Shown: positions 22,009-64,000 of the stretch, one piece after another
Numbering within the stretch: position 1 is the first letter of the stretch
Layout: each line of letters starts with the position of its first letter
NCBI GenBank assembly: GCA_008632985.1
Contig: QPGO01000052.1
Location: 372,001 to 436,000 of the forward strand
DNA from: Psammoneis japonica
Taxonomy: Eukaryota
Direction of reading: 5' to 3'
Length of the DNA: 64,000 nt
The notes under the pieces: model-generated
The model's input: the letters and a program-made list of their open reading frames with translations, nothing else
Databases searched by the model: none
Told to the model about the DNA's origin: nothing
Program-made: the position numbers and the translations under genes

Positions 22009-22284
22009 TGACAGGATTTGAACAGGATTTGGATGCGCGCGAAGCATCGCGCGCTGTTTAGTTTACCGCGCACAGTTTTGTGTGCTTTAGTTCCGCGCGT
22101 TCGCGCGCGATGTAGTTTGCTTTCGAGCCACAAGGCTCACAAGAATAATAACAGTAGCCCGATTATACCGACTTACACGTCTTTCGGCTCCTGTAACGGT
22201 CTCTGAGCAGAGACTCATCTGCTATTTAGACAGCAGTAAGGAGTTATTGTTTGAATTCTTGCCATTTGCCTTCATTTTCTGTCA
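22009..22284 (+). repeat. 5' LTR
   Basis: Aligns without gaps to 28876-29151; 10 mismatched positions, all transitions. Confidence 0.97.
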
Positions 22285-22301
22285 GATTAACAGTCTTGCT
22301 C
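22285..22301 (+). other. Putative primer-binding site complementary to a tRNA-Asn(GTT) anticodon arm
   Basis: GATTAACAGTCTTGCTC; reverse complement GAGCAAGA-CT-GTT-AA-TC reads as anticodon stem, loop and 2 nt. Confidence 0.6.
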
Positions 22302-26200: not shown

Positions 26201-28928
26201 ATGTGCGTGTGCTTCACACTCAACCACACAGCGTCCCCACGTCTCCACTGGCGCACGCCCCTCGAGACTCTCACTGGATCCACCCCGGACATCAGCCCAT
26301 TGCTTCGCTTTCACTGGTGGGAACCAGTGTGCTTCCACCTCGATGACTCCGATTGGCCGTCCGAATCCCGTGAGTTGCGTGGACGCTTTGTTGGCATTGC
26401 TGAGCACGTCGGCCACCAGATGACCTTCAAGATCCTATCTGACGAGACTCAAAAGATCCTCTGCCGGTCCAACGTTCGCTCCGCTGCCCCCGATCCTGCC
26501 GTTCGAAACCTGCGTCTTGATCCTCCTGATGGGGAGCCACCTGAACCCATCATCAAATCTCGCCATGACGACAACCCCGTCGATTCTACTGATGGGGAGA
26601 TCAGGACACCCAAGATGCCAGTTTTCGATCCGCAAGACATCATTGGACGTACCTTCCTCATGCAGCCACAAGAGGATGGACAACGCCACAGAGCTCGCAT
26701 CGTCAAGGCCGTCGAAGACCACGAATGGAAAGTGAACGGCAATCCCGAGCTCACTAAGTTCGTCTGCTCTGTCAACAATGACGAATACGAGGAAGTCCTT
26801 GCCTGCAATGACATCATGAATCACATTGAGCAAGAAGACGAAGACACCACCATTTGGAAATTTCGACGCATCGTATCACACGAAGGACCTCTGAAGCCTC
26901 ACGACCCAACCTGGAAAGGCTCAAGCTACAACATCATGCTTGAATGGGAAAGTGGGGAGATCACGTCCGAGCCTCTTGCCATCATCGCCAAGGACGACCC
27001 CGTCACCTGTGCCATCTATGCACGAGAGAACGGACTCCTCGACACGGATGGCTGGAAGCGGTTCCGCACTATCGCGAGGCGCCAAAAGAAGCTATTTCGC
27101 ATGGCCAACCAAGCCAAGCTTCGCTCCTTCCGCACTGCACCTCGCTACAAGTGCGGATGCGAAGTTCCCCGGAACTACAAACACGCCATGTCACTAGACG
27201 AACGCAACGGCAACCGCAAGTGGGGAGACGCAACTAATCTCGAGATGGACCAACTCGACGAATACGAAGTCTTCCATGACTGCGGGCCCTTCAAGTCTTC
27301 CACTCCTCCTGCGGGACACAAGAAGATCCGAGTGCACCTGGTGTTCGACGTGAAACACGACGGTCGCCACAAGGCACGACTCGTAGCCGACGGGCACCTC
27401 ACGGACGTACCTGTCGACAGTGTTTACTCCGGAGTAGTCTCCCTCCGTGGCCTTCGGCTGATGATTTTCCTGGCCGAACTCAACGAGCTGGAGACATGGG
27501 CCACCGACATTGGCAATGCCCACCTTGAAGCCACCACCAAGGAGAAGCTTTACATTGTAGCTGGACCCGAATTTGGCAAACTCGAAGGACACATCCTTGT
27601 CATCCACAAGGCACTGTGTGGACTTCGCAGCTCCGGTCTCCGCTGGCACGAGCGCTTCGCCGACTGCCTGCGAGCTGAAGGCTTCTTCCCCTGCCGCGCC
27701 GAACCCGACATTTGGATGCGCAGGAACGGCGACCACTGTGAATACATTGGCGTTTATGTGGATGACCTCGCCATTGCCATGAAGGACCCTCAATCTTTCA
27801 TCGACACTCTCACGGAAAAGTGCAAGTTCAAGCTCAAGGGTGCGGGACCCATTGAGTTCCATCTGGGTTGCGACTTTTCCCGGGACCCCGACGGAACCTT
27901 GTGCCTGTCTCCGCGCAAGTACATCGAGCGCATGGTCGACAGCTGCACCCGATTGTTTGGGGAGAAACCTGCCACCAACGCCTTGTCACCTCTAGAGAAG
28001 GGTGACCACCCCGAACTGGACACTTCCGAACTGCTGGGACCCGATGGCATTCACAAGTTCCAGTCTCTTGTTGGTTCACTCCAATGGGCAGTGTCCCTTG
28101 GTCGAATTGACATTACCACGGCTGTCATGTCACTCTCTAGCTTCCGAGCTGCGCCCCGTCAAGGCCACTTGGATCGTGCCAAACGCGTCTGTGGGCACCT
28201 CTCCAAGATGCGACACGGTGCTCTCCGCGTTCGTACGGAAGAGCCCGACCATTCGGATCTCCCTGCTCCGGCCCCATGAATGGATGCATTCCGTGTGTGG
28301 TGAAGCAGAAGAGATGATCCCGAAGGACGCTCCACCGCCCCTTGGCAAGTTCGTCACTGCCACCCACTGCGTCGATGCAAACTTGTGCCATTGCATGCTC
28401 ACCGGACGCTCTGTCATGGGAATGCTCCACTTCCTCAACAAATTCCCGGCTGATTGGTTCTCCAAGAAACAAGCCACCGTGGAGACTGCAACCTGCGGAT
28501 CTGAATTTGTTGCCGCAAGGAATTGTGTCGAGCAGATTGTCGACCTGCGCATCACCCTGCGCTGCCTTGGCGTCCCGATCCGCAATGTCAGTTACATGTT
28601 CGGTGACAACAAGTCGGTTGTAGACAGTGCCACCATCCCGCACTCCAAGTTACACAAGCGACACACCGCACTGTCGTTCCACCGTGTGCGTGAGGCAATT
28701 GCCTCTGGTTGCCTTGAGTTCCACTTCATCGAGGGCTCCCGCAATCCTGCTGACATTCTCAGCAAGCATTGGGGTTGCTCCCAAATCTGGGACCTTCTCC
28801 GCCCTCTCATGTTCTGGAACTTCATCCCATCCGAAGTCGAATCTGTTTCTGTAGCTCCTCAAGCAAACTGGGGAGTGACAGGATTTGAACAGGATTTGGA
28901 TGCGCACGAAGTGTCGCGCGCTGTTTAG
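23258..28928 (+). pseudogene. Copia gag-pol polyprotein with one frameshift (~28273) and many Tyr->Cys/His substitutions
   Basis: Protease ALVDRGANG; integrase VATDTV..SEPHQQHQNFAERR; RT HLVFDVKHDGRHKARLVA, DIGNA, GVYVDDL; RNase H VDANL..GSEFVAA..FGDNKS..NPADILSK in the 28002..28928 frame. Confidence 0.93.
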
Positions 28929-29151
28929 TTTACCGCGCACAGTTTTGTGTGCTTTAGTTCCGCGCGTTCGCGCGCGATGTAGTTTGCTTTCGAGCCACAA
29001 GGCTCACAAGAATAATGACAGCAGCCCGATTGTACCGACTTACACGTCTTTCGGCTCCTGTAACGGTCTCTGAGCGGAGACTCATCTGCCATTTAGACAG
29101 CAGCAAGGAGTTGTTGTTTGAATTCTTGCCATTTGCCTTCATTTTCTGTCA
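28876..29151 (+). repeat. 3' LTR
   Basis: Direct repeat of 22009-22284 followed by TSD CAAGA. Confidence 0.97.
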
Positions 29152-32100
29152 CAAGAGAAGAGCCTTCATGACAACAACTGTGACCCAATTTGGGACATGT
29201 GGGTGTTCCACACCAACACGCCAGGTGCCCATGAACAATTTTCTGGCAGTGGTTGAAAATTAGAAAAATTGAAGTGCTTTGTTGGTGCTGATCACAAAAC
29301 CAGTGTGCACGCTGCTCCATTGCCAAGCACTTGCACACCATTGCTGGCATTGTGTGCTTTTCAATTTTTTGTGGTCAACACAAAAGGAACACTGTGCATT
29401 GCAAATCTCTGATTGCATCATGCCATGAAGTTCTGGGCTTGTGGGATGTGCCAAGTTTTCTCAGATTTGAAATGTTCTGTTTTGGAGTTGTCGGGTTGTT
29501 GTCTTTTGGCACAGTGCAAACTGCACAGTGTGCCATGCACCACAAACTGAATTTTGAATTGTGACTCCTTTTCTGTTCTGCTTTTTTCCCTGCTTTTTTC
29601 ATCCCATGGTCTGCAAGGAGAACGCACATGATTGTCTTTTTTGTCCACAAACTTGTCCTCAAACACCCGCGCAAGTGCCGTTGCATGCATCTCATTGTCA
29701 CATTTGTGCAAATTTGGAACAGTTTCTTTTTTGCGGCAGGTCCAAGACAATGGAGCATTCATGTCCAGTCTGTGTGTCAAGCAGATGAGGGCGTTGCACC
29801 CTTCTGGTGCTGCATTTGGCAGCACTTGCACAGGTCCTTCTTCCTTCCCTGGTCTCAACTCTGGACAGCACAACAGACACCCAGTTTTTGTGCACAGCTT
29901 CAGTGGTGAACAAACAGCTGGTGACTGCTGTCACTCCCTTCCAGCTTCTTGTGTCCTGCAGCATCATCAATGACAAATGCAGCTTGTTTTGCTTCTTTGA
30001 GGCACACAACACTCCTGGTGTCTGCAGGAAGTTGCTCTTGATGCAATGCTTGAGCACAGCATCACCTGCTCAGTTTGCAGCTGCAGCTGGCAAAGCACAA
30101 AGGCCACTTTGCTGGGTTGTTGCTGGAGGGCATCTGCAACCCAGGGTTCATTCTACCTTCTCTTGATTCTGTGCCTCTTTCTTCACATTTTTTCCACAGT
30201 GTCTTGTGTGTTGAAAAGGCCAGCACTCTTGTGCCATCACACACATTCACGCAAGTTGTCATCAAATGTTGTCATTGAAGTGAGCACTTTGCCATCTCCA
30301 CTGTGCAGCTGCCTCACTCTTTTTTCAAAGCATGCTCCTGTGTTGATGGAGTCTTTCTCCTTGTTCCCACATGTTGTGTGTTTGGTGTGTGTGAGGCAGC
30401 TGCTGACCATGTGCAATGACTCTCTTGCTGCCAACAAAGTTGGTGTCTGCCACAGCAACAATGTCTCCATCTTAGAAATGACTCAGCAGCCCCAGCAATG
30501 TTCCATCTCAGAAATGTTTCAGCAGCCCTCTGCCCCATTCTGAATCATCTTTCAAAATGTTGTGCATGCCACAGAGCTTGGTGCCACCAGCAATTGACCC
30601 ATTCAGCATGTCTCTCCCTGCAAAGTGGGTGCACATTTTTCCCTGCTTGTGGGCTGGCTCTGGCTCTTTTTTTTGAAGTCACCTGCAAAAAAGTGTTTGA
30701 GCCTTGGCAGGGCTTGCCTGAGTGCTATTCTCTGATGTGCAGCCACATTCTTGCAAACCTTTTTCAAGCTCTTTCAGCATAAAAGGAAGTCTCATCCACC
30801 ACCACAGGTGTGCGTGACTCCATGCTTCAGTCTTTGCTTTGGCAATCTTTTTCTTCCTGTTGCTTTCAGAAAGCCACCCTTTTCTCCTTGATGAACAGCA
30901 CTGCCTTTGAGGACAATTGTGGTGACTCCAGCTGCTGCTGTGTCTGTGACAGCACATGAGTTGTGAGAAAAGCTGATTCATGAAAGAGCAGCATTCTCTC
31001 ACATGCTGAACTGCCAGACCAGCCACTCTTGTTGGCTTGTGACTTTTTCTTGTTCTGTGCAAAAAGATGCCAGCTGGGTGGCACCTCATTTCATTGCTTC
31101 AACAACAAGCCTGGCAGCAACCAGTTTGTGGCAGCTCTTGCTGTGAAACAACACCTGGTTGAGCCTCTCCTGTTGCTGCTGGTCTGTTCTCAAAAACTCC
31201 CAGCTGTCATCTCAAAGCAGCACAGCTTTGTTGGTGTGTGGGTGTGTGGGTTGGCTTTTGTTGACCAGCTGGCATGCTGGTGCAGGGCAGCAGCAAAGAC
31301 TGCTCTGCCAGGCCAACCACAACTTTAGCTGGTCTCTCATTTTTGCAGCCAATTTGGCACATTGCTGCTGTGAGGGATCACCCTTGCTCTGCAACCTTCA
31401 CAAATGCACAACACAAGGTTCTTCCAGAATGTCTTGTGGGGGCTGGAGAGGGTCAACAAGTCTCTTGCTCCATGCACACATGCCTGCAAGTTGCCACCAA
31501 ATGTTGCCATGGAGCTGAGCTCTTCTTTGCCATCTTTTTTGTGCAGCTGTTTCCAATTTTTTTTCAAACAATGCCATGTTTGTGGAGCCCCTGTCACCCT
31601 TGTTTCTGCCAAGTGCTGTGTGCTTGGTGTAATTGTTCAGCAGTTGTTGACCATGTGTGATGTTGTTTGTGTCTGCAAGATCCACATGACCACCTCAGAA
31701 ATGTTCCAACACTCTGCTCCACTCTGGATCTTCTTTGAATCTGTGCATGCCTCACAAAGCTCACTCTGCTCAGCTGCTGACCTGGCCATGCTCTTGACAA
31801 AATTCCACACACGTCTTTTCTTGTGAAGGGGTCAGTGCACTTCTTTTCCCACTGACTCCAACTGTTTCTAAAGTTGTCCACAAAAAGGTATTTTGCATGC
31901 AGTTGTGGCAGCAAAGAGCTGCTAGATGGCTTTCACATTGCTTTTGTGTGCCAAAGGTCCATGCTGTCCACCCATCTGCAGAGCTTTGTGCAGCCTTGGA
32001 GTTGCCACAATCTTTGTGTGCTGTGCATGGAGGGCCCCCAGTGTGTGTGCTCAAATGTCAGACTTGAGTGTTGCTGCATCAAGTGCTCCCATCAAAAACA

Positions 32101-33535
32101 CAGCAAACGCCACCACTCTCGCCATCATTCAATGTGGCATGTGTTGAACCACAGCTCCAGCAGCTGCTGCAATCAAAAAATTGGGTGCTGTTGTCGTGAG
32201 ATTGCCAAGTGGAGCGATGGTTGAAAGTTCTCCACACCAAGTGTCAACTCTTCCAAGGAAGAGGTCTGGCAAGCTTTGAAGAAGTGGGAAAGCTTTGCAA
32301 GGAAACATGGGTGCTTGTCATCTCCACATTGGCAAAGCTCATGTGGTGGCTGAGTTGTCAGCAGCGATGCTGCACCAAGGCTCTCAGTGATGACAAAATC
32401 AAAAAGTCAGACAGCACTTGATGCATGGGTGTGTCCAACAAAGTGTCAGAACACAAGACCACAAAAGACAAGGCACTGCGGTCATGGCTGTTGAGGCAGA
32501 AGAGGCCAACAAGCAAGAGAGGGGTGAAAATGGGCACACAGAGCTGTGTGAGGTCTCGACATTGACCTGTCTTTTTCTGCTGCAAACGCCAACAAAATGC
32601 AAATCACCCATGAAAACAAGGGGCTGTGGGCAGTGCATTGCAAAGAGTTGTGAGAGAGGTTTGTCAATGGAGTGGATGCTGCAACATTCCTCAAAGTGGC
32701 CCTGTGTCAGGGGTGGGCGTGGGTCTCCAGCCAGCATGAAAGGAAGGGGATGGTGGGTCAATTGCCAAATGAAGAAGTCAGAGAAATTTGGGCTTGTGTG
32801 GACAGCAAAGCACAGCTGGGGGGTGATCCAAAAACATGAAAGGCACCTGTTTGCAGAAAAATCCACGGCATCTGCTTTTCAACATGGCTGTTTTACCAGC
32901 AAAGCATTGTGATCAGGGTCTGACAATTGTGCACAAATGATGGATGAGCTTGCACTTCTCTTTTTCTCTTTGAGTCATTTTGTTGCGCACCAGGGGAGTG
33001 GTCACCAACCTTCCACAGCTCTGCAAGAGTGTTCAATGACAGGCTGTGTCCAGTCTGCCAATGTTGTTGAGCTCATGCGCATCTTTGCAAAGAACCCATG
33101 CACAGAATTCTAGCTGCACTGGTCAAGCCAACACAACCACGGGTCAAATGCCGTTTTAGAGGTTTGTGTTGGCCCTGAGAGCACGATCACCCTTCACATG
33201 TTTAGGACGGGAAAGGCACGAATTGGTGACAAGTGACAGGTAGAGTGATGTCCATCAAGATCAGAATTCGAAAGTCGAAGGTGTTCAAGAACCATGTTTT
33301 CCATTGTAGAAGTGTTGAATCGCCATTGTGATCATCTGTAAATCTTTACTAGAAATACACAACAGTTGGCATTACGAGTATCTTCATCACAACCACTATA
33401 TTTTGGAAAGAAAAGGGACCTAAAACTCGAGTAGCTAAATTTTAAAAACAACAAAAGGAGAAAAAAGTCGACGTCCACTTGTCTCTGCCATCTCTGTAGT
33501 AGCAACGAAGAACGAAGACTTCTTCGCGAAACCCT

Positions 33536-35639: not shown

Positions 35640-38600
35640 AACCCATGACATTTTTTGTGATTTCGCTGCTGTTTGTGCTGCACTTGATTCTCATAACTTG
35701 CCTGCTTTAACTTTGCTCATTCTTGACAGATTGAAGAGCATCGGACACCCCCTGGTTGTGAGAAATTGATGCAGCAACTCCTTCCTGCTGACACCTTGTC
35801 AAAAGCAACCTTGTTTCACTTTGCTGCCGCTGCTGCTGCACTCTGCAAAAGTGTGCAATGCACGCAAGTTCTCCCAAACAACTGCACCTCTGATTGCTGC
35901 TCACATTTCTCTTTTGTAATTGTGCTGTAAATCTGGTGCTGCAACCGCCACACTTTGGAAAAGCTGAGAAAAATCCGGCAGAGATGAGGCTGCTCTTGCC
36001 TCAAAATGTTTTGAGCAACTGCCAGGGTTGCTGACTGCAGCAGCACCCTCTGCCACAGGTCTCATCTCAAGTGGTGTCATTGGCATCTCAAGCAGCAATG
36101 TTGCGCCCCAAGTTGTGTCTCACATCTCATCTTTTTGCCTTGACAGGAGGTGCCATCTCATCTTGAGTGGTGTCATTGTGCATTTTCTCTCATTGAGTTG
36201 CATCATCTTGTCTCATCTTGAATTGCATCATCTTTGTGAGGCAGCGCCATCATCTTTTCTCAAGTCATGTTGTCTTGTCTCATGGTGTCGGCCTTCTTGT
36301 CACATTTCAAGTTGAGCCATCTCTTCTTGAGTGACACCAACTCTGCTGCAGGTCTTGTGTTTTGAGTGCATTGTCTTTTCTCAAGTCATTTCAATTCTGC
36401 TGCAGGTCTCATCTTAAAATGTGTGATCTTTTCTTGGCACTGGTGCCATTGCATGTCATCTACTCTTGAATGCACTGTCCTGTCTGGAGCCATCTTCTGC
36501 AGTCCTGAGTTGCACCATCTCTTCTCAAGTCATGCCACCAGGCACAGCTGGCAGCCCTGTTTGGATCTGCTGCAGCTCCTGCTGCTGTTCTTTGGAACTG
36601 CAACGGCAAGTTACACCTCCATGTAAATTTGAAGGCCAAACACTTTGTGGTGCTTGTCGTGAGTGAAAAATCTCCTTTTTCTTGTTGTTTGGCAATGTTG
36701 TGCATTGTGGGACAGTGTGCTGGTTGGAGTCAACAGGACAATGTCTGTGCTGCTTCAATGTGCCCCACAACACAAGAGCTGTGGCCACAGCAACTCTGCA
36801 CTCATGTCTGTGCTGCTTCTTTTAGCATCTCTGCTCTCTCTCTCTCTCTCTCCACTTGGTTCTTCTGCTTGCACTGGCAAAATGGTTGTTTGTTCATCTT
36901 GTTCTTTCTTTAGAACATTTGCAAGTGTGATGCTCCCCTTTTTGACAAGGAAACAGTCTTGTTGCCTGTTTGCAAGTGTTTGCTTGCAAGCTTGGGACAG
37001 CCAAATGTTGCTGCGCTGCATTTGTGATTGCTTTTTCCACCCACCACACCACTGGACATGTGTGCTGTCTGAGTCAGACCAGCAAGTGGGGGCACTGGCA
37101 AAGGGTTGTCCAGCAGAGTTGTTGCCCTCCTTGTTTGTGGCAATGTGACTTCCACTTCCATCACCACAGCTCAAACATTTTCTGTCCTCCAGTTTGCTTT
37201 GCACTTGATTTTTTTTGGAGTGACATGGCTGCCCTCTTTTCTTCTGCTGCTGGTGGCTGGCCAAGTTTTTTCAAAAGTCTGCATCAGTCTAAATGTGCCA
37301 AATTCTTCATCATTGCTGACACTTGTGTTGTCTTCCATTTGTTGCAATGGCCCCACAGCATTGAGGGAGAAGCTTCAGAAACGCTGTCACACAGCCTGCT
37401 TTCCACTTGAACAAAGCGGCCAAGTCCAGTTGTTGAAGAGCTTCATTTCATCTGGGTGGGCCATGTGAAGGAGATGCCCTTTCAGCTTCATTTGTCTTGC
37501 TGTGCTGGCAATGGCACATCCTCATTGAGCTTGGGGTGAGGTTTGCTTTCTTTGACAAACTTTGCACTGCAGCCAAGGGGTCCAATTCCTGCTGCAGCAA
37601 AATTGCCACCAGTTGAAACAGCAACTGATCAACATTGTGTTCAGGAAATGGATTGCAGCCAAACAACTTCAGTGCTTGCAGATGGGCTTGGTCAACATGG
37701 GCGCATGCAGCACTGAAAAAAATGTGGAAATTCCTTCTTCTTCACTCCCGCATTGATGCTGCACCAGTGTGTGACAAGGACAAGCAAGAAGCACTCCACC
37801 CCAGTGCCAATGCCATGAGGTCAAAAGGCCACCCTCATCTTTTCTGACACATTTTCCCCAAGCTGTCAAAGTTCTGCTCAAGCTTTGATTGGTGTGTCCA
37901 TGCCTCCTTCAACAAGAGGCACGCAACAGTCAAGTTGCGGACTGCCAAAATGTCACCCCACTCTTTTTGTAAATGACAGCGGGCAAACCCAAACTTGCCT
38001 TCACCAACATGCAATTTTGGAGTGAAAGTGATCAAGAACATTCTCAGGTCTGTGATGCCACAGTGGTGTGGTGCCAGAAATTTTGTCTTTGCCACAAAGA
38101 ATCATCAAGGTCTGAATTGAGAGCAGCCCAGATCACCAAGCGACTGACCCACTTCAACAGATTGCTTGTTTTGGCATCAGCAGTGGATGATGGTGCAGCA
38201 CATTCAGTCAACCCAACTTCTGTTCAGTCTGTGGTGCATCTCATTGGAGTTGCTCTTGTCATCCCCAAAAGGATCACAAAGCCAGTGCTCTTGTCAAGTG
38301 CATGATGTGTCAACAGCAGAGTCATTCTTGTCTGCACTCTTGTCATTTTTCTGCATCCACCCCATCTGCCATGCTGCAATGCTTGTTGTGTCCTGCACAG
38401 GCATTTGCATTCTCCCAGCTGCTCTCTGTGCTGTGTTTGTGGTGTCATTTGTTTCAAGTGCACCACTGGCAGCATCTGGGTCATTTTCTGCATTCTGAAC
38501 ATCACATTTGTCATGTCTGCTGCACCCATGTGGTGTGGAGTGCTGCATCAGCTTTCTGCTTGAGTCATCTGCAGTTGCTGCTGCACTTGCTTGCAAGAAC

Positions 38601-41600
38601 TCCCATCATTGCTTTGCTTTGGCAAGCCATCAATTGACTCCAATCAGAACCTCAGTCAGTCTGTCAGCCAAGTTGTTGACAGATGTTCCAATGTCTGAAA
38701 TTTGTGCTTCAGCTGGACCACAACCTTTGCATGATCCCAGCCTGGTGTGCCATCAGCAATCTGCTCAGCTTCAATTTGAAGCCAAATGCTGGCAAAGCAC
38801 TTTGCACTGTGACCTCTTTGACAACAACAAGACTGCAGTTCCATCCAACTGTCATCTGACACCAAATGCCAACCTCTCTGCCTGCACCAACAACAAACTC
38901 AAGCACATCAGCAGCACAAACATGCTTTCTGTGCATTGACTGTGCCTTTCTCCATGGTGGCACAAGGGTGGCAATGAAGGAATTGCAGCTTCTTGCATGT
39001 GCATCTCACTTCTGCAGTCAACGTTCAAACAGAATTGCAGTGTGGTCAAGGATCAGGCACAGCACACTTCTGCAGTTCTGGAGCATGCTGCATCAGCCAC
39101 CAACTGGCACTTTGTGGCTGAACTCATCAATGCAAAGAGATCAACAAGGAGGAGTCAAGCATGGGGTGGTTCTTGGGACACCCAGCTGTTTTGCCAGCTC
39201 CATCATTTTGAATGTGCGTGCCATGCTTGCCTCAAGAGCTTGGAGTCTTGGGGGACATTCACATCTGCCAGGACAAGCTTCAGATGTTGAAAACTCTGCC
39301 TGCTCAACTGTGCAAGGAACTTGTTTGTGAGCAAAAATGCTCATTTCTATCAGGTCCAGAACTGAAGCTTTGCCATGCAGTCCCAGACTGGATGGAAAGC
39401 AAACTTGCAGGTGATTCTTCTCCTCTCTGCCTGGGTCAATTTGGTGTCCAACCTGCACACCTCTTAAGCAAGAGAAGCAATCTTGCCAGTCATGTGCTGA
39501 GAGACCAGCTGACAGTCTCAGCAACAGCCGTGAAAACCAAATGCTTTTCTCATGCCAACAAAGCTTGAGGAAGCACATTTTAAGACTTTCATCACTGCCA
39601 CATTGTGCTGCACTTTGGCTCATCAAAAAATTCTCTGACCAGAGCCCTGCCATCCCCTTTGACATGTTTCAGCACAGCAGCACTGCTGTTTGTCCTTGCC
39701 ATGTGATGCTGCTGTGAGTCAATGGCTCAATTTCTTTGTTGTTGGACTTGGCACAACAAAGCCAATTTAAGCCACAAATCCCACCAGCCAAACAATGTCA
39801 TGCCGTGCAAGGAAAACATTGTCCCCATCCTTTTTGATGCCAAAATCATTTTTGAAAATTTGAAAGAATGGTCACTCAACTCAGACTGATCAGGGTGCAG
39901 CTGAAAGCCATTTGGAAAATGTGTTTTTGAGTGTGTCCATGCTGGGACTCAAAATTGCAAACAAACTCAAACCCAACCTGCAGCTCCATTGGACCTTTGC
40001 CCAGCAACACCAGTGCTGGCCAACCCACACTTCCAGTGCACCCTGCAAGGTGTGTGGAGGAAGCCTGTCATGCACCACTTTGCAATGATGCCCACCAGCA
40101 AAACCTGGTTGAAATGAAACTGCACAAGAAGGAGATTGTTTTTTTTTTTAAATGAATGCAAAGCATGGTTCACACCATTGCAGCAGAGGACACACAGCCA
40201 TCTTTGGTGAAACAAGACCATCCTTGGGTGGAACAAGATTTGGGACAAAAGCAAACAGCTCACTGCTCTGAGGAGCAGCAAGCTTGGCAAGCCAGCAAGC
40301 AAAAGAAGAGATGTTCAGGGCTTGTGGGTGTGAAGTGGGGAGCCTTGATGACACAATGAGAAGGACATCAGCCAGAAGAAATGCTTTTCTCATGTGGAGT
40401 TGATGCCAAATCTTGCACACAAATCAATTCACTCAGAAGATGGGTGATCATCTGGCAACACCAATGGCATTTTTTTTTCCAAACAAGCACTCCCAAGCAC
40501 CACAGCAGGGGCAGCAATTTGATTGACCAGCAGGAGAAGAAGAAATCAACAAGGACCAATGGGTGTGGATGGAAGCAGTTCACAGTTTTGATGATGAGGT
40601 TGTTGGTGAGCATTTCTGAAGCATGCAGAATTTGTGCCAGATCCTGCTCAGATGTGCACTGAATCTGCAAAAGATCACCAAAAATGACAACAAGAATGTG
40701 AGCCACAAGGCTTTGATGCTGGTCATTTTCTGCTGAATGTTGTTTTGTGTGCTTTGCCAAAACAAGGGTGCACCATTGACAGAAATGGCCAAAATGGTCT
40801 TGGAGAACCCAGCAAAACACCATCTGAGAAGGCCAGGGTCATGACATCAGCACAAGAGCACATGCACAGAAACACACGTGGGGGTGCCAGCTGGTGCTGT
40901 GCTGAAAAATGCCCACCCTTGGCAGACATGGGATGTTCATCAGCCTTGGCTTGAGAGGCATTCCCACTGCACTTGCCAGGTGAGTTTGTTGAGTGAAACA
41001 GTTGGGGAACAAACATGTCAATCATGCCACCACCAGGTTTTGCAAGAGCCTCTTGTCCATCAACCGTGTCACTTGGCATGTCCAGGCATGAAAGGTTGTC
41101 CACCCAACACTGTGCAGACTTTGGTTCATTGTGATTTTTGTCAGCCTGTTTTCATCACTTTGTTATTGCATTTGGTCTTTTTTTTTTTTTTTTTTGTCAG
41201 TTGTTTTTCACACCTCTGTCATCATTGACCTTCGCTTCTGTCAGGTCATGGCCTTGCGCTGTGCCACAGAACTCTGTGCCATGCTTTCTGTTTTGATTCA
41301 TTTGTTTTGTGAACCAACTGAGCAAGCCTCATCGCTGTTCCAACAACAAACTTTTCCTTGCTTTCCTGCATTTTTCACGATTGTAGAAACATGCCAAGTT
41401 TCCATGTGTGCATGACCAAAAATGTTTTTCACCAAGTGAACCATGGCATCTCCCGACCTCACAAAGGCCGCTCGACATCCATTGCAGAGATCCATTTTGA
41501 ATTCCAAGCACATGCAACAATGCCACACCTCCATGTATGCTTGAACAAGACACACGCAGATTCAACATTTGATCTGGACCCATTCTTTGATGATCCAGAG

Positions 41601-44600
41601 CATGCTGACCCAAGAAAGATTTGCGGACTTGCTTCGAGCATGTCTTGTCAACAAGGCATTCCCACCTTGCACAGTCAATCCTGTGGACATGCAATCCATC
41701 AAAACAATGGTGGATCAAGCTCTGTTCTGCATCACAGACCCTGCCAGGCCTCATGTGATCCATTTGACGTCTGCAGCTGTGTCGCCGATGATCAAGACAA
41801 ATCTCCAGAACCATGATCAATCGACATGCATTGTCATCTCTACACAACACATTTACATGATCTGCATGTGACATGGAATTGTAGGATTGGAAGGAGTTTT
41901 CCTCAAGCCCTGCCAGCAGAAGCAACAGTCTACATCCTCATCTACAACCAGTTCAGGACCTGTGACTGTCGGTGTGAATGACTTGATCACCACCCTCAAC
42001 AAGTTTGCGTCAAGCAATGCTCCACCTTCCACTGCTTCTGGCAAGACATCTGGAAGTGCTGCAACTTCCATGGCATCAAAATGTCTCTTCAATCCCAATG
42101 CCCTGCATGCCAATGTCTGTGAATGCTGCGACCACAAAGAATTGGTGACGTTGCCTGAAGAGCTGCTTGTCCATTGTGCCATGGATCCCGCCATCACATC
42201 AACGTGTCTGATCACATCATTCTCAATGATGGAACTCTTTTTGTCATGAGCTTGACCCCTGACCAGAAAATGTTGTTCAGGAACCTCCAATCTGTCATGA
42301 CGACTCTCCCGCTGGGATGCGTGCATGGTGCCAACACTTTCAATGTCGCTCCTTCAACTTGGGATGCTGCGTGCATCCTTTGTGGTGTTTCACTGAGGAT
42401 CAAGGTGGTGAGAAGGGCTTTGAGATTGGCAATGGCAAAGATGATGACTTGCCCCAATGCATCCTTTTCAAGTTGGACATGTTCCCCAAGAACAGCAGAT
42501 GTCATCAGATTGTTGCCTCATGCTGTGGCAATGGATGCAAGGCTCTCAAGCAGATTGTCTGCAAGAACCACCTGGCATTTGATCACAAGGCTGCTGGACC
42601 AGATTCCCATCCTGCTCAATGCAATCTGTCATTGACAGACTGTCGTTTGCTCTTCAATGATTTTCTGCAGCTGCGTGCTCATGTCTTTGATGCGGACTCC
42701 ACGTTGGATGATCCACAAGAGATGACTGTCTTCATCAAGAACACTGAATGCTCCAAGTTCTTGTCTTGTGCCACCAGGCACAACGGAAGTCTCCTGCCAT
42801 GCTCAAGAAGCACAGATGCCCAGATTGTTGAGACTCCATCTGACTTCCTTCATCAATGGATGGCCCATCTCTTGCAACTCATACGAACCCTCACAACCCA
42901 TGCCGCAAATGGGATCGGAATGCTGATGATGCACGTTGCACGACTGTTGCTGTCAATGCCTTGACTGTCTTGGATTTCCCTCCCATTGAGGAGGATGCTG
43001 ACAAGACACCTGAGGATGCTGGTGCCGACAACCCCCCAGAGGACACCTTGATGCTCTTTGCAGTGATTGGATGACCTCAAGGTGCCCTCTGTGGATGAAG
43101 ACCATCTTCTCCATCATGTCCACTCGGCTTCTGTGCACAAGCTAAAGGTTGCTCCCACTGAGGCCTCCAAGAAACCATGCATTGTCTGCTCCGATGGGAA
43201 CTTGTTCCATGATTGCCCTGACCTGAACAACAATCTGTGCATCAAGGGCTTCCATGTGCATTTTTGTCAATTCTTGAAGTGGGAAGTGGCCGTGCATGCC
43301 TCTGAATTTCAAGGACCCCAAGATTCATTGCCACCTCATCAGGGATGACCTGATGCTCCGCCCAGTTCTGGTGCTCAGTCTCCAGATTTTCAATCGGGCC
43401 ATTGCAGACAGTTTCGGATCTCCAACACAGCCCATTTTCCACCCACCAAGACAAGACCAATGTCAGCAGGATGACTGTGAAAGAGGGACCAGCCATCTCG
43501 TCATCCACCACTGCACTGCCTCTTTCTTCGACAACTGATGTAGACCACACTCATGCCCCCAACTCAAGACATCTCCTGACATCACCAAGTTGTCCAATGA
43601 TGATCCTGCTCTCCCAGAGGTCACAGCAGGTGTTGATCCTGTTCCGGACTCTTTGGAACAGGGGAGGGAAGATCCAGAAGAAAATGATTTTGCCAAATTC
43701 ATTGATCTCACCTGTGACGACATGGCTGTTGAGGATGGTTTTGCCCGGTGAACTCTGTCTGTGTTGCTCCAATTGATCCACCCCATGATGTTGATCAGAT
43801 GCACAAGAATTGCTCCGCACTGCCTGTTCTGTCAACACTGTCAAGTTTGCACCAAATGAACAATGTGCTCAGCTGGATGCTGGTGCCAATGTTGCCTGTG
43901 CTGGAGACCGTGATCTCCTGCATCAATGCCAAGCATTTGCTCCCTCCAATCCATGCCCGCTTGCTGTCAATCCAGCTCTTGGACATGAAGCTGTCCCAGT
44001 TGGCTTCGGATGCCTTGCATGCCTGCGGAGAACTCCAATGGATGTGTTGAGTTTGCACATGTTGCCACCCGCCAATCCAATCTACCTTGGTTGATGAGCA
44101 ATTGCCACTCTCCAGAATGGTGCTCATTGCACGGATTGCAACATTGACTGCATCCTCAATTCCATGATCTTGGCACCTGCAAGTTTGTTGCATGACATCG
44201 ATTGCGCAAGAGTCAGGATGTCATCATTCATGGGAAATTGATCAATGGCAAATGTCACACCCACCCACTCATCCTCCCAGAATCTCATGATGAGCTGGAT
44301 GCATCAATTGAACGCCTCAGGAACAGCGACCCTTCCTTTGCTGATGAATGTGAAGCGGTCTTGGCCTGCATGGTTGAAACATGTCGTGCATGCCAACATG
44401 ATGCTCTCCGCATGGCAAGGAAGTTGATTCCCTGAGCATGTCAAGACATCCCTTTTGAGAAGTGTGCTGAGAAGAGCATCCCCATCCAATCCCTCAAGGC
44501 GACACGGAACGCCTCTCATGGCATCAACATCTTGGGCACCCCAGTGATCACCATCTCTGTCATGCTCATGAGCATGTTGACGGTGTTCCAAAGTTTGCAC

Positions 44601-47600
44601 ATGGCACATCCCCCCTTGACACTTGCCCCACTTGTGTCCAGGCTAAACAGACGAAGGAACCTGCTGGACCCGACACTGCCTTGACTGCCACCCAACCCCA
44701 CCAAGGTCTCACAGCAGACTTTTCTTTTTCTGGCCTTCTCCAAGAACTCAGAGTTGCCAAGGATTGTGTTGGGTTGAATGGTGAGAGGTGTTGGATCACC
44801 ATTTTGATCATGCAACAAAGTGTCTTGAAGGCCACCCCTTTGAATTGGATTTGCCACTTTCTGGAGGAGCACTTGCTGAAATGTCCTGACAAACATGTTT
44901 TTGTGGATCAAGGAGGTGAATTGTGCAATGATCCGGCGGTTTGGTGACTCTTTGAGGATGACTTTCATCATGTGATTTGTCCTGCTGGAAAAGACGCTTC
45001 AAACCAGAGTGGCCCAGTTAAACGGAGTCATTTGACCATTGCAAATGCCATTTGGGCAATGCTGACAGGTGCTGATTTACCCATCAAGTTTTGGCCCTGT
45101 GCTTTTCATCACTTCACTCAGATCAAGAATGCTGTGCCATCCTGAGGGCAAACTGCTGCCCTGATTGCACTTGCCACTGGTCAGAAGGATGACTTTTTTG
45201 GAACTTTTGCACATTTGGTTGTCTGTTTGGGTGTGGCTTCGAATCATCATCCAGCAAAATTCCGGGCCGTTTCACACAAAGGCATTGTCTTGGGTTGTCT
45301 TCTGGACACCACCAAGAATGTCTTGTGGTGTGACACTGAGACGTCACGTGTCAAGCTTGCCAAGCACATCAGCATGATAAGGGGATGAATGATTTGCCCC
45401 ATGATTCCATTCCCTGAATGTGGTTCACTTGGAACACACTCAGGCTGGTGCCACCTTCCCTGCTGAAACTGAAAAGACTGCCCCATGGACAGTTCCACTT
45501 TCATGGTGACTCTTTTGCCAAGACAATCATGCGCATGATGAAAGGCCCTTTCTCGGATTCTAATTTTGGAGTGTCAATGGCTGCGGATGACCCATGTCAA
45601 TGTGTTTTTGTCTCGGACATCAAACGTGGTTCCCCTGCTGCTCGTCTGTTCTTGTCCTTGAAGGTGACACACAACAAGATCAAGGGCATGTGCATTGCAT
45701 CGATTGATGGTCAACCAGTCTTTGCTCATGATGAAGCTGTCAAGCGTTTCCAACTGTTGCATGATTCTGGCAAGACACATTTTGAAATTGAACTCGTGCC
45801 AGAATGCCAAGGAACCACTTGATGACTTCAAGGCAACACCAATCCCGGTGGATTCCATTCCTGAACTTTGCAACACTGTTGGGCCTGCTGAAGGCACACC
45901 GGAGCATGCGAGAGCCTGACAACAAGCTGCTGGTTTTGGATGCCGCACTCTCCTTGGTGAGCTGTTGTGTGCTTGTGTTGTCTGTCGACTTTACATTGGC
46001 TGTGCCTGTCACTGCTCTCTCCAAGTTCTCCACTTGCCCCACAGAGGCACACTGCAATGCACTCAAGGGTGTTTGCAAGTGTCTTCGACACACCAAGCAT
46101 TGGGAATTGAACTGCAAGAAGGCCAAATGTGACTTGAGTCTCCCTGCCTGTCTGTGTCAATGCCTGAGTCCCAATCCAACCCTCCCATCATTCCCTGCTC
46201 CCAAATGTGACCATCAACTTGTTGCCTTCCTTGATGCTGCATGCAGAAATGATCTTCATAACCTGTCATTCCACAACAGGACATGCTTGCATGTTGGCTG
46301 GTGCTGCCATCTCCTTCCATTGCAAGACACAGTCGGTGACTGCTGCAAGCTCTGCGGAAGCAGAATTCTGAGCTGCTGGCACTGCTGCCAAGCATGTTCT
46401 TCACCTTTGCCATGTTTTGCATTGACCTCGGTTTTTCTCAAATGAAGCTGACTCCTTTGTGCATTGACAATGAATGACCATCAAGATCATCAATCATTCA
46501 TTCTGACCGAGCGCTCATGACATGTTGAGACTCAGTTCTTTGTGATTCAAGAATGGAAGGAGGCGGGCAAGATTGTCACCAGACATGTCCCTGGCATTGT
46601 CAACCCCAGCAATGACCTCACCAAGGCTCTTGGGTGGGTGCTCCCACCTCGACGCATGATGGGACACTGCCGTTGATGTTTTTTTCCGCAGTGGCCTCCC
46701 TGCTGTGCCATTGCCCCATCGTTTGTTGTGCATTGGGCTTGGACATGCATGGTGTCTTTTCTGGTCACTCTGTTTGCATCATCCCTGTTCTTTGGTTTGA
46801 TCTGCACTGTCTTCTGTTTTTGAGACATTGCAGATCAGGGGAGGGCGTCAGCCTGTCTGTCATGCAATGGACAGACTGTGTGTGGATGACCAGACCATTT
46901 AGACAGACGAGCAGATCTCTCTGAGATCTGCTTCTCACTTTCTCATCCACCAGCACGCGTGTCATCACAGTCCCAGTGCTCAGGGAGTCTTTCACACCTC
47001 TGTCATCATTGACCTTTGGTGTTCTGTCACAGCCAAAAAGCATTTCTTTGGTGCACAGACATGAAAGCTCATGTGCAGAGTTGCTTGGTGCATGACAATG
47101 CAACCAACTCAGCAGCAACAACATGAAGTTAGAGCAAAACTTTGCAAATGTCCTTCCACAGTTGTCTCCCCCCATGCAGTCTGCTTTGCAGCCAAGTTTT
47201 CTGTGCAGCACCTGGACAATTGTGCCAAAGCAGTGCGCTGAACACCAGCACCACCCACTGGACTGCAGAGTGTCTTGCTTCTTACAAAAAATGCAGCGCA
47301 TTGCTCTTTGTGGGCTTTGCAGCCAGCCCTTCATTCTGCACAAAAATGGGTCAAATTGGCAAACTGCTTCTTCAAACCAATTGAAGGGGTCCAAATTGTC
47401 CATTGGTGCTGCTGAGTGGGCGGGGTTGGGGGGGTGCAACACTCTGTCCTTTGCAGGTGTCACTGTGCCGGTGGAAGAAAAGATCTCTTGCTGTTTTTGT
47501 GCCAAGGAGTTTTTGTGCAGCTTCAACCCAGGCTGTGGCTTGTGACATGAGCTCCATTTTTTGCTTCTTCCAACACACTGTCATCTTCATCATCAACATT

Positions 47601-48300
47601 GCAACTCTTGTGGTCATCACTTGGCATTGGAGCTGCATGCGCTGTTTCCAGAGGAGAGGTTTTCACCCTTTTTTTGTGCCGCCATGTCCCCAAGCCTGTC
47701 CAGAGACACCAGCTTTCTGTTTTTCCAAATCCTGTGCATGCTTCTTGAGTTGCTTTTCATGGAGAGCTTCTTCTTGTTGTTTTTCCTGCCTCACCATGCT
47801 GCTGTTGTTTCGTTTTTTCACTTTCGGCCTTTGCTTTGCACACTTCTTGGCCTTTGGTGTGCTCTTGGTCTGTGATCTCTTGTGGTGCACACATGACAAC
47901 AATGTCCTCCATCCAGCATCAACCCCCCAGCAGATGACAAGCTGGCCCCAGCCCGCCAGTGCCCGCTTCCTGCTGCCATGTGTGGCAGTTGACTGCAGTG
48001 ACCGCCCTCTCGTTTCTCAGATGTCTTGGGTGCTTTTCCATGTTGACGACTGCTCGACTCCTCTGCTCTCCACTCTCTCTCTGGCTTTCTCATGAGTTGG
48101 GCTGATCAAAACCTTCGGCCCACATGAACATTGCATCCCATGGACTTCAGCATGCAATCCCTTTCATGCTCATGAGATCAAAAATGGCAAGCGACAAAAT
48201 CATTGCGTCCATCAGAAATGTCTCATTGCCCTTGTCTAGCCATGAAGCTCGACGACGCGTCCTTGTTTTCTCATCATGTCACCTGCTGAGTTGGCATTCA
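35640..48300. repeat. TpA/CpG-depleted degenerate block 4 (nested TE remnants)
   Basis: Roughly 40 TpA in ~12.6 kb by manual count; contains the decayed copia below. Confidence 0.75.
41207..47029 (+). mobile_element. Decayed Ty1/copia element of a second family (RT core deleted, 5' LTR partial)
   Basis: LTR 3' ends match (41207-41243 vs 46991-47029, both ending CTGTCA); PBS-like GGTCATGGCC at 41244; WHQHLGHP, DQGGELC, QSGPVKRSH..KFWPCAF (integrase); GCRTLLGELLCAC; AEAEF, CIDN, NPSNDLTKALG (RNase H); purine tract 46837-46845. Confidence 0.88.
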
Positions 48301-61081: not shown

Positions 61082-64000
61082 TTTTCATTGACCACTCAGT
61101 GGTTGGTGATTGCAGACTTTTTCGTGTCGGTCCGGCAGTCGGGCAGTCGGGCAGTCGGGTTGTCCGTCTGAATTTGAAAGTGTGTCCCTCGGATTTTGGA
61201 ACGGGATGGGTTGTTTAGTACAGATGAATTCTTCGGATTCGTAGAATGATCATTGAGGACATGAGAGGTCGTGGGGACATCCTAAAAAATCGATAAATTC
61301 CCTACGACGGGTACGTGGCACGGTTTTTCAGGAGAGCTCGAAAGTTCTCAAAAATTGGGATTGCCGGCGTGGCATGTTGAAAAATGTATTTTAAGTTATA
61401 AACAAAGATAATTAATCGTGAATTCTACACGAAACAGTCATATTTGGGAAAACATATCGAACAATAAGTGAGTTTGTGCGATGCGCTATTATGGCGATAA
61501 ATTGGAAAAAAAAGAGTGTCCGTGCACCTCGCTACAGCCCCAAAAATGGCATGAGACATCAAACATGACGGTCATCCGCGTCACCGGTGCGGTGGCCACG
61601 CCACTCAGCCGCCACAATGCCGGCCCCGGCGGCAGGGCCCTGCGCACGTGCAGGCAACACAGCATGCAACGGCACACACCCACACCCACAAAAAGAAAGA
61701 CAAGTGGTCAATGCTCCCCGCAGGCCTGGTTTGTTTTGATGAAGAACGAAGACCAAACATTGATTGAAGATGCCGTCATTCAGTGCGTGCTTGCTGGTGG
61801 CGAAATCCGGGGCGCGCAGCTATGGGAGGGGCACGCCGTAGAAATCACGCAGGGACGAATTTTCTTGGATCGAAACGAGAGTTGCCTTAGTCGACAGAGG
61901 GTGTTACGGCGGTCTTAAAATGGGGGGCAACTTTTTCATTTGCCTTGCATTCGTCGTTGACGAGATCGATGAAGTGACCACAATTTTCCCGTGCTTTGCC
62001 GTGCAATCATCACTGAAAACATTTCGATTTTCCGAAAATCCTGCTGTCGCTCGTTTGCAGTTTTGGAATGTCGCTGCAACTTTTGTCATGCCGACACTGG
62101 CCAATGTCAAAAGCAGAGGCTCTCACGTCTCTAACAATGCATCCCCAAGTCACCTGACTCCGCAGTTGGAAAGAACGTGAAACGGTGCTTTTGTTGCTTT
62201 TGCCGCACTTCACCATGTGATCACGACTGAAAATCCTTGATGTCTCGTTTGCAGTTTTGGAGTGACATTGCGGCCATTGTGATGCCAAAAGTGACCAACA
62301 TCAAAAGCAGAATCAATCACGTCTCTGACAATGTGTCTGCCACTTCAGCTGCCTCTCCAGTTGCAGAGAACGACCAATGGCATCTTTCTCTCTTTCGCCG
62401 CACTTCGCCGTGCAAAAATCGCCGAGTGCCAACACACGCCCATTTCGCGGTGGAACTGAGTTCTCATTTCAAAGCACAATGAGCTCCACCATTTTGTTCT
62501 TTCTGCTTGTCTGTTCAGGACATGATTCTTTGCAGCTTCTGATGTTGGTGTCGGCAGAGGCGGTTTGATGGCAGGTTTGGAGAAGACTTTGTCACAAGAG
62601 AATGCAAGGCGTGGCTTGTTTGCAGGTTTGCCACGGGGCTTCCAAGGCAGAGGCAAGCCCTTCTTTCTGGCATCAACGCGTGCTCTTTTGTGCACTGTTT
62701 GCTTTGGCATCTTGTCTGTCTCATCCTTGGTCTTGTTGAACATGAAGATTCTCGCATGGCGCCCTCGTGTCATCGTCTGGTTCATCGACAGCAAGCATTT
62801 CCTTCGCATTCATGACACCAAAATCCATTCCAGACTCAAGGATTGCATGACTCAAGAACACGGCATGAGCTGATTTGCGGATTTTCGTTGCTCCTCGGAA
62901 TCCAAATGAAAGGTTTGAACTGCCACCAACAACCTTTGCATGCGGACACCGTTCCTTGATGGTCTTTGTTGTTGATGAGGTCGACTTGCAGTTGGCATGT
63001 TCCTCCATGCCGGCGCCAATTGTCGACGCATTGGGGTCACACACAATGTCTGTGCCCACTTCGTGAATGTCGTGCGAGCGCTTGCATGTCCAAACCTTGT
63101 CCTCCTTGGTCGCTGCATGTCCTTGTTCGTCAAATGCCATGTCTGCTGCTGCAGCACCGTGTTTCTCCAACCATGTCCAACCACCCATTGCTCTCCACAA
63201 TGTGCCTCTCAGTGGCGCTCTTCCTGTTGACATGGCCGAAAACGCAGTGTTGGAATGCTTGTTGCTTGTCGTGAACTTGGAGTCGATCGCTCTCAATGTC
63301 TCAGAGTCCAAGAGCCTAAAAATCCTTTTCTCAGAGCTTTCATCATGACAGCAAGTTGTTTGCTGACAGACCAAGTCTCTGTGGTCTTTGTTTCCAGCAC
63401 ATGACAAAACCATTTCTCGCGAAGGTGTCATTTGGATGACGGCATGATGTTCAGATGAGATGTGAGGTCATTTGCAGACATTTCAAAATCACTTGATGAA
63501 ACTGCCACCAAAAATCATGCTTCGGAGCCCCTCTCCTAATTCGATGACGGTGGACACGATGGCATCAAATGTGCATCTTTTCACGTTGATCCTGAGGGTG
63601 CAAAAGCAATGTGGTGCGAAACGGCATGTTTGTTGGTCAGGTGTCGACATTGTTTTTAATGTCTCAACCAAATCGTTGTTCGAGACAGCCCCTTGCAGCA
63701 TTCCACCTGATGAGATGATGGCGGATGCAACACTTTGAAGGGCTGTCTGAAACAGTGATTCTGAGGGTGCGAAAGCGATTTGGTGAGAAACGGCAGGTTG
63801 ACTTGGTGGTCGCTTGGCAAACGTTGTGGCGGGAGTTGGAAGCCCGGCCTTGTGCAAGCACTGGACATTGAATGTTTCAATGCAATGAGCAGGAACAACA
63901 CTCACGCGGAATGCAATCCTCACAGCTGCTGACACTCAAACCATGCAGAAAACCCCATGCAGCAAACAAGTGCACAGTCTTGCGAAGCATGTGAGTCCCG
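61082..64000. mobile_element. Probable non-autonomous element with a Helentron-like left end carrying gene fragments; TpA-depleted from ~61.5 kb; runs off the window
   Basis: T-run, short hairpin ACCACT-C-AGTGGT, tandem GGCAGTCG x3 and GTCCGTCTG, then a TpA-poor mosaic interior. Confidence 0.45.
62510..63170 (-). pseudogene. METH: Fragment of cobalamin-dependent methionine synthase (pterin-binding region), degenerate
   Basis: HGAAAADMAFDEQG, DIVCDPN, GMEEHANC, GGSSNLSFGFRG, AHAVFLSHAI..GMDFGVMNA resemble MetH YGAAVVVMAFDEQG, DIIFDPN, GIEEHNNY, GGVSNVSFSFRG, IHAVFLYYAI..GMDMGIVNA; frameshift near 62745. Confidence 0.88.

Follow-up and report, generated by a model that had tools for sequence, protein, structure and literature searches.

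The subject of this report is a 64,000-nucleotide stretch of the genome of the diatom Psammoneis japonica (assembly GCA_008632985.1, contig QPGO01000052.1, positions 372,001 to 436,000 of the forward strand; hereafter the window, numbered from its first letter) and, near its end, a 221-codon fragment of a diatom-type B12-dependent methionine synthase (METH) on the minus strand at 62513-63176. The fragment is most probably an amplified piece of a host gene which, after it had been copied, was hit by a process converting TpA to CpA or TpG, and the same process acted elsewhere in the window. The fragment has no TpA in its 664 nt, against 22.5 expected from the 12 intact open reading frames (ORFs) of the window (Poisson P=2e-10), and sits inside a TA-free run of 1184 nt (62133-63316). 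Since METH is a conserved host protein that gives the ancestral state, it can be said that TpA was lost, and not that CpA and TpG were gained by composition.

Direction of change in the METH fragment

Forty-seven diatom METH segments matched the whole fragment; 42 were aligned, and five at less than 53% identity were dropped. The protein consensus of other diatom species served as the ancestral state, which leaves synonymous changes invisible, and each difference was read as a single base change from the consensus residue to the observed codon. The fragment is identical to the consensus at 111 of the 155 columns that are at least 80% conserved and differs at 44. The differences comprise ten TA>CA and two TA>TG changes, six CG>CA and three CG>TG changes (two of the latter could also be A>T from AGG), seven other transitions (including three TG>CG and one CA>CG), nine transversions, and seven multi-step changes. 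Ten of 13 T>C changes precede A, and 12 of 17 A:T>G:C changes fall on TpA, against an expectation of 13.4% (P=1e-7), so that the polarised TpA to CpA or TpG spectrum anticipated by the first-pass annotation of this DNA does appear when the consensus is taken as reference. The signature is impure, with nine changes of the CpG-decay type standing beside the 12 at TpA.

All four conserved tyrosines of METH are replaced in the fragment, three by His and one by Cys; a fifth (FSYD, in a column conserved at 70-79%) is Cys as well. Among the individual motifs for which the first-pass annotation had proposed such replacements, KRSHD (diatom consensus KRSYD) is a genuine Tyr>His and EEHANC (consensus EEHANY) a genuine Tyr>Cys. 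The third, HGAA, had been compared with the wrong MetH: diatom METH already has His at this place (KKHGAA, conserved at 90% or more). In AAAAD, read earlier as Ala at Val positions, two Val>Ala changes relative to the consensus AAVVV do have the GCA codons expected from GTA, while the third of these Val has become Asp by a transversion.

The conversion of TpA to CpA or TpG makes no stop from a sense codon, and its consequence is therefore a frame that stays long while Tyr is erased and the NTA codons of Val, Leu, and Ile are altered. On the minus strand of 61534-64000, 54 stops are TGA, four are TAA, and four are TAG, and spurious long ORFs occur in all frames of the TA-free blocks.

Identity and extent of the fragment

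With five diatom METH proteins as tblastn queries, residues 465-689 of protein P0057 align to the fragment at 60-63% identity (E 4e-67). The homology edges lie within 3-6 bases, at each end, of the 62510-63170 span given by the first-pass annotation. Human MTR (4ccz_A) matches it in a phmmer search of PDB (E 3.7e-28), with residues 100-242 of the query, a 248-codon stop-to-stop frame at 62721-63467, aligned to chain residues 475-622. A Pfam search at E up to 10 gave no family, Pterin_bind included, on the ORF of the fragment. In the protein collection, 1456 matches at E<=1e-10 were obtained from 1781 candidates, with a top identity of 65%, and those named to species all belong to diatoms or other ochrophytes (Seminavis, Conticribra, Skeletonema, Cyclotella, Phaeodactylum, Nitzschia, and Aureococcus). 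A metagenome scan with the fragment returned eight loci at 40-48% identity and no near relative.

The fragment consists of two parts, divided by one frameshift at ~62744 (Table 1). Part 1 corresponds to residues 465-614 of P0057 (62.7% identity) and part 2 to residues 615-689 (59.7%), the latter also aligning to residues 607-681 of P0018 (tblastn in each case). The pterin-binding identity assigned earlier to the whole piece therefore holds for part 1, while the last 77 codons are inter-module linker. A straight read through the fragment meets three in-frame stops. Only 221 codons are present, against more than 1,200 in METH, and the complete architecture of homocysteine, pterin, cap, B12, and activation domains is absent. 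Elsewhere in the whole window, tblastn found no match to the remaining parts of METH better than E 0.27; the window ends 824 bases past the fragment, and these 824 bases upstream of it hold no METH sequence by the same search. The fragment is dead, i.e., non-functional.

Many diatom METH proteins (1500-2000 residues; P0001-P0036) carry an extra homocysteine-plus-pterin module ahead of a full METH, and a conserved linker joins the two modules: ARKKGLPxPRKPRGK...PRLQFxYD...PKPATEPPLPTS. In P0018 (1999 residues, transcript-derived), S-methyl_trans and Pterin_bind each occur twice, ahead of the cap, B12, and activation domains, whereas P0086 of P. tricornutum, with one S-methyl_trans and one Pterin_bind, represents the single-module form. 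The linker motif of the fragment is common to double-module diatom METH, which indicates that the parent was a METH of this type and that the fragment spans the module junction.

Table 1. Positions of the METH fragment, the TpA-depleted blocks, and the retrotransposon within the window
Feature	Position	Strand	Details
METH fragment part 1: C-terminal half of first pterin-binding domain, 144 codons	62745..63176	- (frame -3)	PDB phmmer E 3.7e-28; 0 TpA
METH fragment part 2: inter-module linker and start of second module, 77 codons	62513..62743	- (frame -1)	tblastn
TpA-depleted repeated block holding the METH fragment, running off the window end	61534..64000		TA 3.6/kb, CG 49.5/kb, CA+TG 197/kb
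Direct repeats of ~195 bp adjoining the METH fragment, 2-3 copies, 70-78% identity; high-copy genomic family	61984..62425		
Copia long terminal repeat (LTR) retrotransposon, TpA-poor	22009..29151	+	RVT_2 E 7e-27; LTRs 96.4% identical
Copia 5' LTR	22009..22284	+	15 TpA
Copia ORF, 1737 codons, open	23066-28276	+	
Copia C-terminal part, ~180 codons, in a different frame	28275-28850	+	
Copia 3' LTR	28876..29151	+	9 TpA
Largest TpA- and CpG-depleted block	35709..48236		TA 3.0/kb, CG 11.8/kb, CA+TG 226/kb
gag_pre-integrase remnant in the largest depleted block	44471-44944	+	Pfam, E 1.4e-6
TpA- and CpG-depleted block	29152..33110		
TpA- and CpG-depleted block	19750..22008		
TpA- and CpG-depleted block	14169..16161		
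TpA- and CpG-depleted block	5553..8704		

Copies and flanks of the fragment

Contigs of one sample's DNA runs (X1, which carries 0.79 of the sampled words, and X2, which carries 0.54) were mapped on 61001-64000 at 80% identity or more; no RNA run was among those listed for this stretch. In X1, 1389 contigs fit this region (302 at 99% or more, 331 at 95-99%, 429 at 90-95%, and 327 below 90%), and their summed depth over the METH fragment is 540-1310, compared with ~50-85 for single contigs. Counting the copies and comparing their flanks, as the first-pass annotation had suggested, gave at least eight distinct contigs that span 62851 at the same threshold, at least five that span 63025, and a non-METH flank shared across the junction at 62513. 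The junction is bridged both by a 1043-nt contig of X2 (61903-62971, ~85% identical) and by a 374-nt contig of X1 (62244-62615); the only copy of the fragment-bearing block in X2 is the one at 85% identity. At the other edge, one contig follows 63167-63489 and then runs into unlike sequence. The multi-copy state, the bridged flank, and the unlike edge together indicate that the fragment is a module of a mosaic repeat and not the native locus.

The embedding of the METH piece among unrelated DNA, noticed in the first pass, is thereby borne out, its flanks being repeated DNA in a window that contains no other part of METH. Of the proposal that it is a host-gene duplicate inside a repeat or a Pack-type element, the duplication stands, the piece being multi-copy with a shared flank, while no terminal inverted repeats or target-site duplications of a Pack-type element were found in 60900-64000, where the search returned only imperfect inverted repeats of 15-21 nt; the block continues beyond the window end. 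When the window was compared with itself, only the pair of Copia LTRs and two short repeat pairs were detected; neither a further METH copy nor a less-mutated version of any block was among them. Tandem Repeats Finder reported nothing relevant in the window.

Transitions prevail among the differences from X1 (358 of 462). The comparison of copies rests on the 40 of 515 differing places and the 16 of 1454 pieces that were listed. Among these 40 places, 15 have CA or TG in the window and TA in 17-100% of contigs, which means that the copies differ in the extent of conversion; one is the window's lone TA (63317), which is CA in 13 of 13 contigs; and the rest are 15 CpG-type differences, four transversions, and five other transitions.

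TpA-depleted blocks of the window

TpA in the whole window amounts to 0.34 of expectation, but its distribution is bimodal. Normal DNA of the window has, per kb, 39-46 TA, 49-58 CG, and 142-151 CA+TG, whereas six depleted blocks, ~26 kb in total, have 1-3.6 TA and 197-235 CA+TG, with an observed/expected ratio of TpA of 0.02-0.09. In five of the six, CG has also fallen to 6-12 per kb; in the sixth, at 61534-64000, it remains at 49.5. The balance per kb in the blocks is close to what conversion of both dinucleotides would give: ~37 TA and ~45 CG are lost, and ~80 CA+TG are gained.

Little else can be recognised in these blocks. Pfam applied to 143 of their ORFs yielded only the gag_pre-integrase remnant and seven weak matches below the cut-off, including one, in the largest block, to CxC1, a cysteine cluster associated with KDZ transposases (38227-38547, minus strand, E 0.0035). 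No older Copia remnants were found in the other blocks by tblastn with seven unmutated Copia homologues. As for the TpA that survive in the six blocks, 55 of 75 occur in a TAA/TTA context, compared with 38% of 1001 in normal DNA, and none of the 75 is ATAT or GTAC, although the numbers are small. A preference for certain flanking bases may lie behind this bias, or back-mutation may have created new TpA.

Neighbouring genes of the window are spared. The 12 intact ORFs contain 20-44 TA per kb and have an ordinary Tyr content; the intact frames include TAF6, Rpc25, DUF726, a transporter of the major facilitator superfamily, and the beta subunit of methylcrotonoyl-CoA carboxylase, whose best match has 82% identity and which is 74-78% identical to its counterparts in Seminavis, Nitzschia, Cylindrotheca, and Amphora. 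Judged by protein similarity, the window would belong to a raphid pennate diatom or something closely related, with no proteins of its own in the collection.

A Copia retrotransposon hit after its insertion

The Copia element at 22009-29151 provides a second case in which the ancestral state can be read from proteins. Tyr makes up 0.86% of its ORF, less than in any of 120 homologues (median 3.85%, minimum 2.86%), and Cys 3.05%, more than in any of them (median 0.90%, maximum 1.28%). The spectrum was derived from 60 of the 120 homologues, with 67 differences in 636 conserved columns. All seven T>C changes lie before A, 19 of 22 A>G changes lie after T, all six G>A changes lie after C, and the single C>T lies before G; 13 transversions, 16 multi-step, and two ambiguous differences make up the remainder. 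Thus, 26 of 29 A:T>G:C changes are at TpA (P=4e-20). Conserved Tyr was lost in 25 of 35 columns (15 to Cys, seven to His, and three to Phe), while in the control set of His, Cys, Phe, Trp, Asp, and Asn, the loss affected 11 of 139 columns (P=5e-14 for the comparison with Tyr). A broader action of A>G at CpA was also considered and rejected, since it would account for 1 of the 22 A>G changes in this ORF, though the METH fragment has its few TG>CG and CA>CG changes. The long Copia frame is open because TA>CA/TG cannot convert a sense codon to a stop; the element is nevertheless broken, as its last ~180 codons lie in a different frame.

The two LTRs differ at ten positions, which make up nine dinucleotide sites, and every one of these is TA or CG versus CA or TG; no other difference exists. 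At six sites, the 5' LTR has TA where the 3' LTR has CA (three) or TG (three); one site is CA versus TG, at adjacent positions; and two sites are CG versus CA. Consequently, 6-7 of the nine differing sites are of the TpA type, and background substitutions number zero. It follows that the changes post-date integration, that their rate was far above the background, that both strands were affected, and that the action was uneven. TA occurs 15-19 times per 250 bases in the first ~740 bases of the element (5' LTR plus leader) and 0-7 times in the remainder. The element has lost CpG in no part (73/kb), and GC reaches 0.58-0.62. As TpA has been lost while CpG is intact, the loss of TpA precedes that of CpG, and its boundary within a single element is sharp.

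The depleted stretches on either side of the element, 19750-22008 and 29152-33110, probably formed one older block that was split by Copia. This arrangement suggests that Copia nested into DNA which had already been silenced and had lost its TA and CpG completely.

Explanation and its alternatives

The sequence of events that would best account for these observations begins with the copying of 221 codons of a double-module METH gene of the host, their transfer into a mosaic repeat, and amplification. The copied piece would then have been hit at the DNA level by context-specific transitions from TpA to CpA or TpG (A:T>G:C on either strand), continuing until TpA was exhausted, with ordinary decay of CpG to TpG or CpA and background substitutions overlaid. 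About 26 kb of the window would have been hit by the same process, the LTR retrotransposon included, the latter after its insertion, while neighbouring single-copy genes kept their TpA. Direct observations in this account are the homology, the multi-copy state, and the direction and context of the changes; in addition, both strands are hit, as CA and TG outcomes occur together in the METH fragment, the Copia ORF, and the LTRs, and the process acts after integration and spares the adjacent genes.

Several facts weigh against this explanation. The stretch at 61001-61533, directly beside the depleted block that holds the METH fragment, keeps a normal TpA content although it is a very high-copy short repeat, with the highest summed X1 depth of 61001-64000 (5500-20900). 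Repetition is therefore not sufficient for being hit, and on duplication as the trigger two neighbours point in opposite directions, the multi-copy METH block being affected and the adjoining, still more abundant stretch not. Repetition may not be the trigger at all, given that the main target of the comparable hypermutation described in the chlorarachniophyte Bigelowiella natans is, as presented in the preprint, single-copy. The 5' end of Copia, ~740 bases with the 5' LTR, is untouched. In the METH fragment, 16 of 37 single-step changes are neither of the TpA nor of the CpG type, i.e., ordinary decay is substantial, and the polarity of the changes leans on proteins of other species. Finally, X1 may be the source data of the assembly to which the window belongs, and the agreement between them is then not fully independent.

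Another way to lose TpA would be the slow decay of a modified symmetric TpA mark in silent chromatin (oxidised thymine or methylated adenine), comparable to the decay of methyl-CpG. TpA is palindromic just as CpG is, the two losses coincide in five of the six blocks, and both yield CA/TG, but in the METH block ~90% of TpA is gone with CpG near normal (49.5/kb, compared with 53-58/kb), and the 6-7 TpA changes of the LTRs, all in one LTR and with zero background, look fast and patchy. Such one-sided changes, together with the uneven TpA content of Copia, argue against slow uniform decay, as do the bursts of B. natans, which were limited to some lines (bioRxiv 10.64898/2026.01.13.699255, as far as the preprint describes them); we regard this alternative as unlikely, though the most serious of those considered. 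Editing of repeat RNA by an ADAR-like enzyme (adenine to inosine after U), with reverse transcription carrying the change into DNA, would agree in the base change and in the 5' U/T preference, and one of the carriers is indeed a retrotransposon. Editing of this kind is hard to reconcile with T>C and A>G occurring on the same strand in the METH fragment, in the Copia ORF (7 versus 19), and in the LTRs (3 versus 3), with LTR differences that post-date integration, or with a METH block in which Pfam and the repeat search revealed no retroelement features, and it is given very little credence.

Explanations that dispense with a special mutation process fare even worse. If the fragment were what decay had left of a sole METH locus, the presence of a single METH piece in the window would be natural; however, the piece holds just 221 codons out of more than 1,200, neither the 824 bases upstream nor any other part of the window contains further METH, and one and the same non-METH flank recurs in several distinct copies. 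An intrinsically TA-poor region would fail to explain why conserved Tyr turned into His or Cys, which codon usage cannot do, and either version is highly improbable. Equally so is an artefact of sequencing or assembly, e.g., systematic miscalls at modified bases. At six of the 40 differing places listed, the window letter is absent from all X1 contigs, and X2 contains only an 85%-identical copy of the METH block, both of which would fit an artefact; on the other side, contigs of the DNA runs mostly support the TA-free state, none of the three listed differing places inside the METH fragment restores a TpA, and the graded, partial depletion of Copia with one-sided LTR changes is unlike a call error.

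Hypermutation of TpA by a process of its own, following amplification, thus remains the preferred account, and it can be extended. Judging by the resemblance of the two footprints, the process would be of one kind with the TpA-only hypermutation of B. natans. The chemistry may be deamination of adenine in DNA to inosine, which is read as G, with an ADAT2/TadA-like enzyme as the catalyst; the biological role may be defence against invasive DNA. The broadest formulation is a tentative one, and we consider it somewhat less probable than its negation: a heritable DNA mutator of diatoms would recognise invasive or amplified DNA and rewrite every TpA, with adenine deamination as the probable chemistry; chlorarachniophytes would have it in common with diatoms, so that it may be old in SAR (stramenopiles, alveolates, and rhizarians); and it would be a mirror image of repeat-induced point mutation (RIP) without stop codons, in which elements are disabled through the loss of Tyr codons, of signals resembling TATA and poly(A), and of TA target sites, while the native gene is spared when a fragment of a host gene becomes amplified.

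Significance

A hypermutator restricted to A:T>G:C changes at TpA has, it appears, been reported once so far, in a 2026 preprint dealing with integrated viruses of a chlorarachniophyte (bioRxiv 10.64898/2026.01.13.699255). If it is true that retrotransposons and repeats of a diatom become saturated with the same footprint, the phenomenon is not a curiosity of one alga, and a genome-defence or mutational system would extend more widely through ecologically dominant phytoplankton. That host sequence, too, is hit once it is placed in such DNA can be seen from the METH fragment. There are consequences for annotation as well. Because only TGA stops are left, the regions that have been hit retain very long open frames, and the proteins read from them lose Tyr, gain His and Cys, and are missed by profile searches, as happened with Pfam on the METH fragment.

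Comparison with known systems

Fungal RIP is a process of C:G>T:A transitions at CpA, which raises TpA, lowers GC, and creates stops. The footprint in P. japonica resembles it in that dinucleotide-specific transitions affect non-genic or repeated DNA on both strands, with sharp edges and with neighbouring genes spared. Unlike RIP, the changes here are A:T>G:C at TpA, TpA vanishes, GC is the same or higher, and no stops arise; in place of the C:G>T:A changes at CpA that define RIP, we find TpA at 0.02-0.09 of expectation and Tyr turned into His or Cys. Diatoms do possess DNMT4 enzymes related to fungal RID, whose function is described as unknown (PMC9998398). Nothing in the data from the window ties DNMT4 to the TpA process.

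The decay of methyl-CpG is similar in turning a palindromic dinucleotide into CA/TG, and it has also left its trace in the same blocks (nine changes in the fragment); the difference lies in the dinucleotide and the base, and here the loss of TpA outpaces that of CpG. The footprints of ADAR and APOBEC in animal retroelements are likewise clusters of deaminase-type transitions in mobile DNA, and ADAR favours a 5' U, but these footprints are strand-specific and arise through RNA or cDNA intermediates, whereas the present one involves both strands and follows integration. The capture of genes by Pack-MULE and Helitron elements is comparable in that part of a host gene is multiplied along with non-genic flanks; in contrast to those elements, the surroundings of the METH fragment within the window yielded no terminal repeats, target-site duplications, or transposase.

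The closest parallel is B. natans. In its mutation-accumulation lines, according to the preprint, the mutation rate of two integrated viral regions exceeds that of the remaining genome ~1000-fold, 230 of 231 hypermutations are A>G or T>C, all 230 on TpA, and only some lines hypermutate (bioRxiv 10.64898/2026.01.13.699255). The same source describes 124 genomic clusters of windows poor in TpA and rich in CpA+TpG, an enrichment of reverse-transcriptase and DDE domains among TpA-poor coding sequences, and the authors' proposal of an ADAT2-like DNA adenine deaminase (bioRxiv 10.64898/2026.01.13.699255). The text of the preprint mentions neither diatoms nor CpG (bioRxiv 10.64898/2026.01.13.699255), and our literature search returned no report of TpA loss in diatom repeats.

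The differences from that system, as the preprint presents it, concern the lineage, the target, the degree of conversion, and CpG. B. natans is a chlorarachniophyte in which the loci measured are the single-copy insert of a giant virus and an insert of a virophage, while here a diatom is concerned, with a retrotransposon, repeats, and a host-gene fragment; its inserts keep many TpA (Rho 0.45), while the blocks described here are near saturation (observed/expected 0.02-0.09) and have undergone CpG decay in addition. As far as the preprint allows the comparison, the two cases share A:T>G:C changes on TpA with both TpG and CpA as outcomes, strand symmetry, the clustering of TpA-depleted, CpA+TpG-enriched DNA, and the local nature of the depletion (blocks with 1-3.6 TA per kb against 39-46 in normal DNA). 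By this analogy, the diatom case would be filed as joining TpA-specific hypermutation of the B. natans type, here hitting retrotransposons and a fragment of a host gene.

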